The position numbers and the translations under genes were made by a program. Shown one piece after another: positions 24,884 to 28,613 of a stretch of DNA of 64,000 nt. Numbering within the stretch: the first letter of the stretch is position 1; each line of letters begins with the position of its first letter. This DNA is from Escherichia coli (lineage in GTDB: Bacteria > Pseudomonadota > Gammaproteobacteria > Enterobacterales > Enterobacteriaceae). A model generated the notes under the pieces. That model saw only the letters and a list, made by a program, of their open reading frames with translations. It made no database searches and had not been told where the DNA came from. The stretch is from assembly GCF_029227855.1 (NCBI RefSeq), contig NZ_CP074356.1, one strand, 5' to 3'.

Positions 24884-26737
24884 ATGAGACGATTTCTGAC
24901 GACGCTGATGATACTCCTGGTCGTGCTGGTGGCCGGGTTATCTGCGTTAGTGTTGCTGGTGAATCCGAATGATTTCCGCGACTATATGGTCAAGCAAGTT
25001 GCTGCACGTAGCGGTTATCAATTGCAGCTCGACGGGCCACTGCGTTGGCACGTCTGGCCGCAGCTTAGTATCCTCTCCGGGCGAATGTCTCTCACTGCCC
25101 AGGGCGCGAGCCAGCCACTGGTTCGCGCAGACAACATGCGTCTGGACGTGGCGCTTTTACCACTGCTGAGTCATCAACTGAGCGTTAAGCAGGTGATGCT
25201 AAAAGGGGCAGTGATTCAACTGACGCCGCAGACGGAAGCGGTGCGCAGTGAAGACGCTCCGGTTGCACCGCGCGACAATACCTTGCCGGATCTGTCAGAC
25301 GATCGCGGATGGTCGTTTGATATATCCAGTCTTAAGGTGGCGGACAGCGTGCTGGTGTTCCAGCATGAAGATGACGAGCAGGTGACAATCCGCAATATTC
25401 GCCTGCAAATGGAACAAGATCCCCAACATCGTGGTTCATTTGAGTTCTCCGGGCGGGTTAATCGCGATCAGCGCGATCTCACGATATCCCTTAACGGTAC
25501 GGTAGATGCTTCTGATTATCCGCATGATTTAACGGCGGCTATTGAACAAGTTAACTGGCAGTTGCAGGGTGCAGATTTACCAAAACAAGGTATTCAGGGG
25601 CAGGGGAGTTTCCAGGCCCAGTGGCAGGAGTCACATAAACGCCTTTCATTTAACCAAATTAGTTTGACCGCCAATGACAGTACGCTGAGCGGGCAAGCAC
25701 AGGTCACGCTGACAGAGCAACCGGAATGGCAGCTGAGACTGCAATTTCCGCAACTGAATCTTGACAACCTCATCCCGCTTAATGAAACAGCGAACGGTGA
25801 GAACGGTACCGCGCAGCAAGGGCAGAGCCAATCAACGTTGCCGCGCCCGGTCATTTCTTCGCGTATTGATGAACCGGCCTATCAGGGACTGCAAGGCTTT
25901 ACGGCTGATATTTTGTTGCAGGCCAGTAACGTGCGCTGGCGCGGAATGAATTTTACAGATGTTGCCACGCAAATGACCAACAAGTCGGGTTTGCTGGAAA
26001 TTACTCAACTGCAGGGCAAACTTAACGGTGGACAGGTTTCACTGCCGGGCACGCTGGACGCGACATCAATAAATCCGCGGATAAACTTCCAGCCACGGCT
26101 GGAAAACGTTGAGATTGGTACCATTCTGAAGGCGTTTAACTATCCGATTTCGTTGACCGGAAAGATGTCACTGGCTGGTGATTTCTCCGGTGCTGACATA
26201 GATGCCGACGCATTCCGCCATAACTGGCAAGGACAGGCACATGTCGAAATGACCGACACGCGCATGGAAGGGATGAACTTCCAGCAGATGATTCAGCAAG
26301 CGGTAGAACGTAATGGTGGTGATGTGAAGGCCGCTGAAAACTTCGATAACGTAACGCGTCTTGACCGCTTTACCACCGATTTGACGTTGAAGGATGGCGT
26401 CGTGACGTTAAACGACATGCAAGGTCAATCGCCCATGCTGGCGCTTTCCGGGGCTGGTACGTTGAATCTGGCGGAGCAAACCTGTGACACCCAGTTTGAT
26501 ATTCGGGTCGTGGGGGGCTGGAACGGGGAAAGTAAACTGATTGATTTCCTGAAAGAAACGCCAGTACCGCTGCGGGTTTATGGCAACTGGCAGCAACTCA
26601 ATTACAGCCTGCAAGTGGATCAGTTACTGCGCAAACATCTACAGGACGAAGCGAAACGTCGCCTGAATGACTGGGCCGAGCGGAATAAAGATTCCCGCAA
26701 TGGCAAAGATGTGAAGAAGTTGCTGGAGAAGATGTAG
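24884..26737 (+). CDS. asmA: Outer membrane assembly protein AsmA
   Basis: 617 aa; N-terminal signal anchor MRRFLTTLMILLVVLVAGLSALVLLV; AsmA family. Confidence 0.95.
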   Translation: MRRFLTTLMILLVVLVAGLSALVLLVNPNDFRDYMVKQVAARSGYQLQLDGPLRWHVWPQLSILSGRMSLTAQGASQPLVRADNMRLDVALLPLLSHQLSVKQVMLKGAVIQLTPQTEAVRSEDAPVAPRDNTLPDLSDDRGWSFDISSLKVADSVLVFQHEDDEQVTIRNIRLQMEQDPQHRGSFEFSGRVNRDQRDLTISLNGTVDASDYPHDLTAAIEQVNWQLQGADLPKQGIQGQGSFQAQWQESHKRLSFNQISLTANDSTLSGQAQVTLTEQPEWQLRLQFPQLNLDNLIPLNETANGENGTAQQGQSQSTLPRPVISSRIDEPAYQGLQGFTADILLQASNVRWRGMNFTDVATQMTNKSGLLEITQLQGKLNGGQVSLPGTLDATSINPRINFQPRLENVEIGTILKAFNYPISLTGKMSLAGDFSGADIDADAFRHNWQGQAHVEMTDTRMEGMNFQQMIQQAVERNGGDVKAAENFDNVTRLDRFTTDLTLKDGVVTLNDMQGQSPMLALSGAGTLNLAEQTCDTQFDIRVVGGWNGESKLIDFLKETPVPLRVYGNWQQLNYSLQVDQLLRKHLQDEAKRRLNDWAERNKDSRNGKDVKKLLEKM

Positions 26738-26755
26738 GTTACCAGGTGACTTGTC

Positions 26756-26797
26756 CTGTAGGCCTGATAAGACGCCTGAAGCGTCGCATCAGGCGTT
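26756..26797. repeat. REP element
   Basis: GTAGGCCTGATAAGACGCCTGAAGCGTCGCATCAGGC, a typical REP palindrome downstream of asmA. Confidence 0.5.
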
Positions 26798-27029
26798 CGT
26801 GGCGGCACCATTATATTCTGAATATGTAAGATCGAAGGCTGTTCCGTTCACTTGATGTTCCTCGTTACTATGTAACGCTCAAGCCGGTGAACGTGCCAGG
26901 GTGGCTCAATCTCCACCACCCTGGCAACCCGGGCCCACACCCCCGCTGTGATGTCCGTTTACCACAGACAACGCTTCATTGCTGAAGTTATAAGGCGTTA
27001 CGCAGCATCGGGTAAAATGACCGATACCA

Positions 27030-28613
27030 TCACACCTCGTACTCCATCTCGCCATCCTTATGCAGCGGAATAATCTGCACCTTCTGCACGCGATGGCTTT
27101 CCACCTGCAACGTTTTGAGCAAGTAATCCCCTACCTGAACTTCTTCGCCAGGTTTTGGAATACGCTGCAAATATTCCATCAGCAGCCCGGCAATGGTGTG
27201 ATATTCGCGTTTCTCATCCAGCGGTAGCGGCACATATTGCACCAGATCTTCCAGCGGCATATGACCATTCGCCGTCCAGGAACCGTCCGCATTTTTCTGA
27301 ATATCATGGCGGGCGTCGATCTCTTCCACTTCGTTCGGTAAGTTACCGGCAATGGTTTCTGTGACGTCACTTAATGTCACAATCCCTTCCACTGAACCAA
27401 ACTCATCCACCACAAAAGCAAAGTGCGTGCGGGCATTACGGAACTGCTCCAGGGCTGGTAACAACGGCAAGGTTTCCGGGAACACCAGCGGCTGGCGAAT
27501 CAACACCCGCAGGTTGAGCGGTTCGCCGCGCAGTGACTGTTGTAGCAGGTCGATAACGTGAACAACACCGAGCAAATCTTCTGCGTCATCACCGTCGGTA
27601 ACCACCAGCCGCGTATGCTGATTTCGCTCCAGCAACTGGCGGATCTCGTCTTCCGGCGCGTTGAGATCGATATGCTCAATATCGTGGCGCGACGTCATAA
27701 TGCTGCTGACGGTACGCTGATTAAGATTAAGGACCCGCTCAATCATCCGCCGTTCCTGCGGGTTAAAGATCTGCTGGTTACCATGATCCACCAGCATGGA
27801 CGCGGTTTCGGCGTCCAGTTCCGCATCTTCTTTTTGCCCGCTAAGCAGGCGCATTACCGCTTCGGTAGTCCGCTGGCGCAGCGTCTGGTTAGCGGAAAGA
27901 AAACGTCGCCGGTTAAAGATAGCCAACTGATTGAGCGCCTCGATCATCACCGAGAAACCAATGGCAGCGTACAGGTAGCCTTTCGGAATGACGAAGCCGA
28001 AACCTTCCGCCACCAGGCTAAAGCCAATCATCAACAGGAAACTTAAGCAGAGTATGACGATGGTCGGGTGGCTATTAACAAACTGAGTTAACGGCTTGCT
28101 GGCCATCAACATCAGGCTGATAGCGATAACGACGGCGGCCATCATGACCAGTAAATGGTCGACCATTCCGACGGCGGTAATCACCGAGTCGAGTGAGAAG
28201 ATGGCGTCCAGCACCACAATTTGCGTCACCACCCCCCAGAACTTCGCACCTTTGCGTTGCGTGGGGTTATTGCTGTCTTTCCCTTCCAGCCGTTCGTTCA
28301 ACTCCATCGTGGCTTTGAACAACAGGAAGAAACCACCAAACAGCATGATTAAGTCGCGGGCGCTAAAGGTAAACGAGCGGAAGCTGAACAGTGGTTGCGT
28401 CAGGGTGACCAGCCAGGAGATTGACGCCAGCAGTAACAGGCGCATTAACATTGCCAGCAGCAGCCCGGTAACTCGTGCGCGGTCACGCTGCTTCGGCGGT
28501 AGTTTTTCGGCGAGGATGGCAATAAAGACCAGGTTATCAATGCCGAGGACCAGTTCGATCACAATCAGCGTGATTAACCCGGCCCAGATAGACGGATCGG
28601 CAATCCATTCCAT
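27030..28613 (-). CDS. yegH: TerC-family membrane protein with CBS/CorC domains YegH
   Basis: 527 aa from ATG at 28613 ([30 protein letters not shown], TerC motif); C-terminal CBS pair and CorC domain. Confidence 0.9.

Follow-up and report, generated by a model that had tools for sequence, protein, structure and literature searches.

A hairpin between asmA and yegH of Escherichia coli is a helix of a truncated TRIP1/RRS-like repeat, probably an inert relic

The TRIP1 intergenic repeats were named by Rudd in 1999 and have been surveyed by Li et al. in 2024 (PMC10888264). In that survey, the elements are 146-273 bp long with a G+C content of 62-65%, their function is given as unknown, and 99% of the copies are assigned to five loci: TRIP1a between aqpZ and ybjE (lysO), TRIP1b between putP and ycdN, which carries a 125-bp internal deletion, TRIP1c between yohI (dusC) and yohG, TRIP1d between alx and sstT, and TRIP1e between copA and ybaP. 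Replication Risk Sequences (RRS) have been described at lysO and dusC by Pham, Wood, Dunbar, Cox and Goodman (NAR 2024, PMC11194060); the RRS at lysO is TRIP1a, and the RRS at dusC is TRIP1c.

The RRS are two 222-bp repeats located ~650 kb on either side of dif. They are conditionally essential, shape genome-wide supercoiling, and trigger lagging-strand post-replication gaps that become loaded with RecA and SSB (PMC11194060). This activity has been ascribed to a G4-forming sequence on the lagging-strand template, 5'-GGGGGTGCAGGGGGCGGCGG-3', at which Pol I, II and IV stop in vitro, and the intact RRS folds when single-stranded (PMC11194060). In K-12, ssGAP peaks were reported only at lysO and dusC, and inverted RRS produced no RecA or SSB peak, yet still rescued viability (PMC11194060). 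The only activity of the family shown by experiment is one at the DNA level, replication stalling and gap formation, and not that of a small RNA (PMC11194060).

We compared these elements to a hairpin found in 64,000 nucleotides of E. coli DNA (contig NZ_CP074356.1), hereafter the window. The hairpin is located in the spacer on which asmA (24884-26737, + strand) and yegH, a TerC family gene (27030-28613, - strand), converge. The palindrome at 26896-26924, CCAGGGTGG-CTCAATCTCCA-CCACCCTGG, reads exactly as in the original prediction made from the letters of the window. The perfect 9-bp stem described there is present, but its length was understated, as the perfect inverted repeat TGCCAGGGTGG/CCACCCTGGCA comprises 11 bp with arms at 26894-26904 and 26916-26926 and an 11-nt loop. 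Read on the - strand as UGCCAGGGUGG-UGGAGAUUGAG-CCACCCUGGCA, the stem has 12 pairs including one G.U, and the whole hairpin spans 26894-26926. Folded as RNA, the 29-mer reaches -16.2 kcal/mol on the + strand (z -3.5) and -18.7 kcal/mol on the - strand (z -4.6), with 0 of 200 shuffles folding as well in either case, and DNA folding of the 55-nt stretch 26886-26940 gives ~-14 kcal/mol. Both arms contain a Dcm site, CCAGG at 26896-26900 and CCTGG at 26920-26924; these sites are confined to the asmA-yegH subfamily defined below and are not kept in TRIP1a-d.

The surroundings of the hairpin agree with those first described: the asmA stop codon ends at 26737, 158 bp upstream, the yegH stop codon starts at 27030, 105 bp downstream, and a REP palindrome adjoins at 26762-26794. 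The hairpin itself is neither a REP nor an intrinsic terminator, as had been claimed. REP-like matches, including weak hits to the REP-derived Rfam family naRNA4, occur only at 26761-26833, outside the element described below, and differ in sequence from the hairpin. No U-tract follows on either strand, the stem being succeeded by CACGUUCACC on the - strand and by CAACCCGGGC on the + strand, and a scan of 26500-27300 returned no terminator-like site on either strand and no promoter-like site. Rfam searches of the window and 11 loci at permissive thresholds yielded no family covering the hairpin, with a RAGATH-5 match (E = 5.5) dismissed as chance. Our literature search on intergenic features of asmA and yegH returned nothing relevant, and the K-12 RefSeq record has no annotated feature at any spacer examined.

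Three alleles of this spacer occur in E. coli: one of 451 bp, the 292-bp allele of the window, and a K-12 allele with a different deletion. The hairpin is present in all three. Aligning the window with the intact 451-bp allele and the K-12 allele placed the deletion junction at 26934|26935, between the microhomologous CCGGGC and CCGGAC; the window allele is missing the 159 bp located immediately 3' of the hairpin on the + strand, and the sequence it has kept matches the intact allele with ~96% identity. A survey of 5426 complete E. coli genomes detected the 49-nt hairpin region in 4466, the intact long allele in 1425, and the window-type junction, represented by a spanning 61-mer, in 401. The intact allele contains an element of 276 nt with a GC content of 0.61 and 13 helices, of which the window retains ~116 nt (GC 0.57) with helices 12 and 13 alone. 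On the - strand, this remnant consists of the 5' end of the element, UCACAGCGGGGGUGUGGG, together with the junction at which the core-bearing 159-bp stretch was lost (26934-26951), of the hairpin, which is helix 12, and of a 3' domain (26836-26893), in which CGTTCAC (26845-26851) pairs with GTGAACG (26887-26893) to form helix 13. Three features fall inside helix 13: the inner palindrome CGTTAC-TAT-GTAACG at 26863-26877, a GAGGAA resembling an SD motif, and a GTG start codon. The inner palindrome differs by two substitutions from other alleles (CGCTAC-TAT-GGAACG), which render it perfect in the window and may reflect templated quasi-palindrome correction. A small ORF of 20 aa with an SD-like motif and a GTG/ATG start at the 3' end of the element (26851-26789, - strand) was rejected because neither its length nor its sequence is conserved between copies. 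Independent internal deletions are seen in the window allele, in the K-12 asmA-yegH allele (L093 2503-2660) and in K-12 TRIP1b (L095 2850-2999). All three remove the core with its two GGA hairpins, and all three keep helices 12 and 13.

The intact allele assigns the locus to a known family. A nhmmer profile built from TRIP1a-d only matches the intact asmA-yegH allele (L002) over HMM positions 3-271 with E = 3e-45, and the 451-bp allele aligns to TRIP1a and TRIP1c over the length of the element. The window remnant alone gives no significant match to this profile, and its assignment thus follows from the intact allele at the same locus. In a family profile, positions 175-273 match window 26935-26836 (- strand), and covariance model R1, which includes asmA-yegH copies, scores the window at 70.1 bits. 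The intact asmA-yegH allele shares with TRIP1 its helices, its GC-rich character and an intergenic site next to membrane or transporter genes, and the internal core deletions of asmA-yegH copies resemble that of TRIP1b. However, identity to TRIP1a/c is only 61-71%, compared with 84-94% among the five catalogued types, and the window copy is a remnant of ~116 nt. The copies at asmA-yegH, mmuM-tauA, proX-ygaY and rpoD-mug are located outside the five catalogued loci (PMC10888264), and the asmA-yegH locus is neither listed in the TRIP1 survey (PMC10888264) nor mentioned in the RRS study (PMC11194060). The copies at these four loci form a separate, diverged TRIP1 subfamily that appears in neither recent paper. 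REP/BIME elements are likewise GC-rich intergenic palindromes located after gene ends, and a REP lies 100 bp from the hairpin, but they have no sequence similarity to it, and its stem and loop are longer and belong to a 275-nt multi-helix unit.

We searched for further copies by blastn with the long allele, which places the element at a median of 3 and up to 10 sites per E. coli genome with 77-85% identity, and which also matches Klebsiella and Citrobacter. The E. coli loci are mmuM-tauA, proX-ygaY, aqpZ-lysO, dusC-yohP, alx-sstT and putP-efeU; a Citrobacter copy is found at torD-yeiP, Klebsiella copies at the iol and csdE loci, and a copy in another enterobacterium at rpoD-mug. The asmA-yegH spacer itself was recovered from 76 species-representative loci. 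In most other genera, it measures 21-130 bp and holds one GC-rich or REP-like hairpin, so the additional content of the E. coli spacer is an insert. Further spacer copies occur in Silvania, Lelliottia, Siccibacter and Klebsiella michiganensis, and the copy at asmA-yegH is an insertion confined to Escherichia and a small number of further genera. Taken over all loci, the element is a multi-copy, non-coding repeat of ~275 nt present in E. coli, Klebsiella, Citrobacter, Silvania, Lelliottia and Siccibacter.

Several copies show rearrangements. The 1956-bp asmA-yegH spacer of K. michiganensis contains four tandem, strongly diverged copies scoring 40-71 bits (L052 4234-5833). In E. whittamii (L004 4160-4510) and in L005 (4160-4435), the element at asmA-yegH is inverted with respect to E. 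coli (window 26836-26951) and is bracketed by two inverted REPs, of which E. coli keeps one; in another Escherichia lineage (L007), the spacer is only a 67-bp REP. The E. whittamii locus also contains a JUMPstart RNA element upstream of wza (L004 2021-2058, Rfam 57.9 bits). Two copies have their homologous hairpin interrupted by an IS element sitting precisely within it (L103 ~960, L107 ~9646). In the first, an aqpZ-lysO copy, an IS10-like end, CTGAGGAATCCCCAG, is followed by a 407-aa transposase-like ORF; in the second, a TGT-initiated end with repeated ACCGGnCACATGGGTAACA sites breaks the hairpin loop. At alx-sstT (L096 2547-2944 compared with L091 1688-2302), K-12 has BoxC-like CCCTCTCCC/GGGAGAGGG repeats where other strains carry TRIP1d, and the flanks are unrelated, so that this is not a clean insertion. 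Comparing filled and empty sites gave no support to a MITE origin, since neither a target-site duplication nor terminal inverted repeats could be delimited there. A phage origin was rejected as well: no match was found in 50,697 phage records, and the IMG/VR 'viral' contigs that contain copies are chromosomal, as exemplified by the arrangement dnaG-rpoD-element-mug.

We investigated whether the fold of the element is maintained between copies. In 11 copies aligned over ~275 nt, RNAalifold predicts 65 pairs, 31 of which show compensatory changes. In a 24-copy alignment, which was fitted to the covariance model and thus leans towards structure, 95.1% of the cells are paired and 43 of the 65 pairs are changed on both sides, compared with 35-43% and 9-12 in slid controls; 0 of 500 shuffles matched the observed pairing values. 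Within these 24 copies, 9 of the 11 pairs of helix 12 change on both sides, and in helix 13, pairing reaches 98.8% and 3 pairs covary. The homologous hairpin was found in 20 of 20 copies folded individually, with stems of 10-13 bp built from at least 10 different arm sequences, among them GCCAGGGUGG, GCAGGGGGCGGC, GCAGGGGGAGGA, ACAGAGGGCGGC, GCAAGGGAGGC, GUAAAGGGCGU and GUGAAGGGGGC. A single mismatch or bulge is seen in three copies (L005, Silvania and K. pneumoniae), and the loop starts with GGCG in all copies examined. A pseudoknot between the loop and the 5' strand (GGCGAUU with AAUCGCC) is not supported, as the Citrobacter copies show no covariation for it. Compensatory changes in short hairpins could also be generated by templated quasi-palindrome correction in the absence of selection, an origin harder to invoke for the long-range helices 1-6 and 13. 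The comparative evidence suggests that selection acts in intact copies on the multi-helix fold as a whole, the hairpin overlapping the proposed G4 included.

The hairpin occupies a defined position relative to the RRS stall site. In K-12 TRIP1a, the RRS 20-mer runs from the junction GGGGGUG through the 5' arm of helix 12 (CAGGGGGCGGC) to the first GG of the loop. Since the 20-mer spans the helix 12 arm, the window hairpin is homologous in position to the RRS stall site, with the corresponding junction, 5' arm and loop start located at 26911-26930 on the - strand. The G4-forming 20-mer is not found there, and the window reads GGGTTGCCAGGGTGGTGGAG in its place. The G-runs are G3/G3/G2/G2 in the window, which has also lost the core, as opposed to G5/G5/G2/G2 in the RRS. 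In our own implementation of a G4Hunter-style score, the window reaches 1.00 compared with 1.84 for RRS-lysO, and TRIP1a/c/d reach 1.84-1.92 compared with 0.9-1.0 in the asmA-yegH subfamily. A G-run pattern GGG-N4-8-GGG-N-GG-N-GG is kept in all copies, which would account for the loop invariably opening with GG. The universally conserved feature is the hairpin and not a strong G4.

The orientation of the element differs as well. The strand described by the covariance model is the G-rich strand. In K-12, it is the + strand for TRIP1a in the right replichore and the - strand for TRIP1c in the left replichore, and the G-strand of both copies is thus the lagging-strand template, in agreement with PMC11194060. 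At asmA-yegH, the G-strand has the sense of yegH and is the + strand at 2.139 Mb in K-12; as this is in the left replichore, it serves as template for the leading strand. In line with this assignment, GC skew on the window + strand is positive, and as judged from synteny and skew, the G-rich strand of the window is thus not the lagging-strand template. We compared orientations among K-12 copies (L093, L094, L095, L110), further E. coli copies (L084, L085, L091) and L100. Within E. coli and syntenic loci, only the lysO and dusC copies have their G-strand on the lagging-strand template; by synteny with K-12, TRIP1b, TRIP1d and the copies at asmA-yegH, tauA, proX and rpoD-mug apparently have it on the leading-strand template. 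Orientation is mixed in other genera. The dusC-yohP copy of strain MS10858 (L087 2430-2704) is inverted relative to K-12 (L110 2117-2392) at 89% identity, has TRIP1a-like extended flanks, and is located in a spacer whose flanking sequence is unrelated to that of K-12. The orientation of RRS-dusC is therefore not fixed in E. coli, and the roughly equal forward and reverse TRIP1 counts (PMC10888264) fit this inversion.

These findings together bear on how the hairpin is best explained. A palindromic operator for a dimeric DNA-binding protein would be compatible with a perfect 11-bp inverted repeat that has an 11-bp spacer and an intergenic position. Yet only complementarity, and not arm sequence, is kept between copies, and the site is flanked by the ends of convergent genes and has no promoter-like sequence near it, which makes this reading extremely improbable. 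The protein-binding site offered in the original prediction is in the same way unlikely as a sequence-specific site in double-stranded DNA, because the arms differ between copies while staying complementary. An intrinsic, possibly bidirectional, terminator of asmA and yegH, or a chance palindrome, is brought to mind by the strong stem and by the short spacer of most other genera, which is essentially a single GC-rich hairpin. We consider it very unlikely, as a U-tract is missing on both strands and the same hairpin recurs within the repeat at many unrelated loci. A stem of this class (perfect, at least 11 bp, at least 8 G-C pairs, loop of 3-20 nt) was moreover expected 0.05 times per window in 200 dinucleotide shuffles, compared with 1 observed in the 64 kb.

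Two readings leave the hairpin with a function. In one, the element would be a structured RNA in the sense of the yegH strand, whose two apical GGA loops would be putative binding sites for CsrA-type proteins, with the hairpin serving, within the yegH 3' UTR, as a stem for structure or for 3' protection. The 13 nested helices with conserved unpaired nucleotides favour it, as does the ratio of 27 G.U to 13 A.C pairs on the modelled strand, but G.T pairs are tolerated in single-stranded DNA too, and the alignment was fitted on that strand. GGA is found in both apical loops of all core-retaining copies except L002, in which the second loop is GUGA. The loops read CAUGGAUG or CAGGGAUG and ACAGGGAUGU, GCACGGACGC and similar (alignment A3, columns 65-87 and 89-154), and persist in K. 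michiganensis and Siccibacter, although the copies there have diverged greatly. They closely resemble the CsrA consensus RUACARGGAUGU. In the TwoAYGGAY family (RF01731; Weinberg 2010), proposed to bind CsrA (PMC4333381), two adjacent hairpins with A-N-GGA-Y loops are likewise placed inside an outer stem, as in the intact core and on the same strand. However, intact copies score 28-31 bits and so fall short of the gathering score of 43, their second loop frequently reads ARGGAY, and the family has no counterpart of the window hairpin; the window gives no match because its core is deleted. Against an RNA further stand the lack of promoter or terminator consensus flanking the three full copies scanned, the mixed orientation at co-directional gene pairs (two sense, three antisense) and the absence of CsrA CLIP flags for ybjE or dusC in a gene-level table (PMC5694010). 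The window copy also lacks both GGA hairpins. We regard this reading as quite unlikely. In the other reading, the hairpin and G-tract would fold on unwound DNA, pause replication or affect local supercoiling, which would leave the remnant as a weak element of RRS type and not junk. The homology to the RRS polymerase-stall site, the stability of the DNA hairpin (~-14 kcal/mol), the survival of helices 12 and 13 through three independent deletions and the ability of inverted RRS to compensate for RRS loss (PMC11194060) all point in this direction. The restriction of K-12 gap peaks to lysO and dusC (PMC11194060), the G4Hunter-style score of ~1.0 compared with 1.84, the G-strand on the leading-strand template and the case of TRIP1b, which retains this module yet is absent from the reported gap sites, point the other way. 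Residual activity thus appears unlikely.

The hairpin belongs, as one of its helices, to a truncated TRIP1/RRS-like repeat; with good confidence, we interpret it as helix 12 of a diverged family copy that is most likely an inert relic. The original prediction is thus partly borne out: of its three suggestions, part of an unannotated small RNA comes closest, in that the hairpin belongs to an unannotated structured element and does not stand alone. In the RRS, DNA polymerases stall at the segment comprising the G-rich junction, the 5' arm of the homologous hairpin and the first GG of its loop, and a post-replication gap forms where the stalling strand is the lagging-strand template. The insert at asmA-yegH originally measured ~276 nt and lost its core in this strain through the 159-bp microhomology deletion, which left the 5' tip, the hairpin and the 3' helix. 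The perfect stem would then be inherited from a fold selected in intact copies and not reflect a function at asmA-yegH. The window copy is probably inactive, because its core is gone, its G-runs are weak and its G-strand is, by synteny and skew, the leading-strand template, a placement in which intact RRS too yield no detectable gaps. This orientation is by itself no proof of inertness, since inverted RRS still rescue viability (PMC11194060), and the retention of helices 12 and 13 through three independent deletions could mean that the module has residual value; the two substitutions that perfect the inner palindrome likewise count against a relic. The K-12 allele of asmA-yegH keeps the hairpin, and the locus is not among the gap sites seen in that strain.

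Once both RRS are deleted, cells survive only if the insH7-insH8 interval, 2,102,912-2,288,976, is amplified 2-3-fold (PMC11194060). We found that the K-12 asmA-yegH remnant is located inside this interval, at 2,139,502-2,139,659. That the element is a cryptic, partly deleted third RRS-like site is doubtful, but its surviving hairpin and G-tract could supply weak RRS function as dosage rises. A contribution of remnant dosage to the rescue is a long shot. A broader and similarly speculative possibility is that the RRS act through the conserved hairpin and the 13-helix fold and not through a canonical G4, given that the hairpin persists in subfamily members poor in G4.

For the window itself, the odd palindrome is the fossil of a known repeat; no new regulator is needed, and it is an ordinary feature at this locus. 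For TRIP1/RRS biology, the comparison adds a diverged subfamily at four loci, with copies in at least six genera, that is absent from the two recent papers, and comparative evidence suggesting selection on a multi-helix fold. It also brings to light near-universal GGA apical loops and a candidate reason why amplification of insH7-insH8 may rescue E. coli that has lost its RRS.
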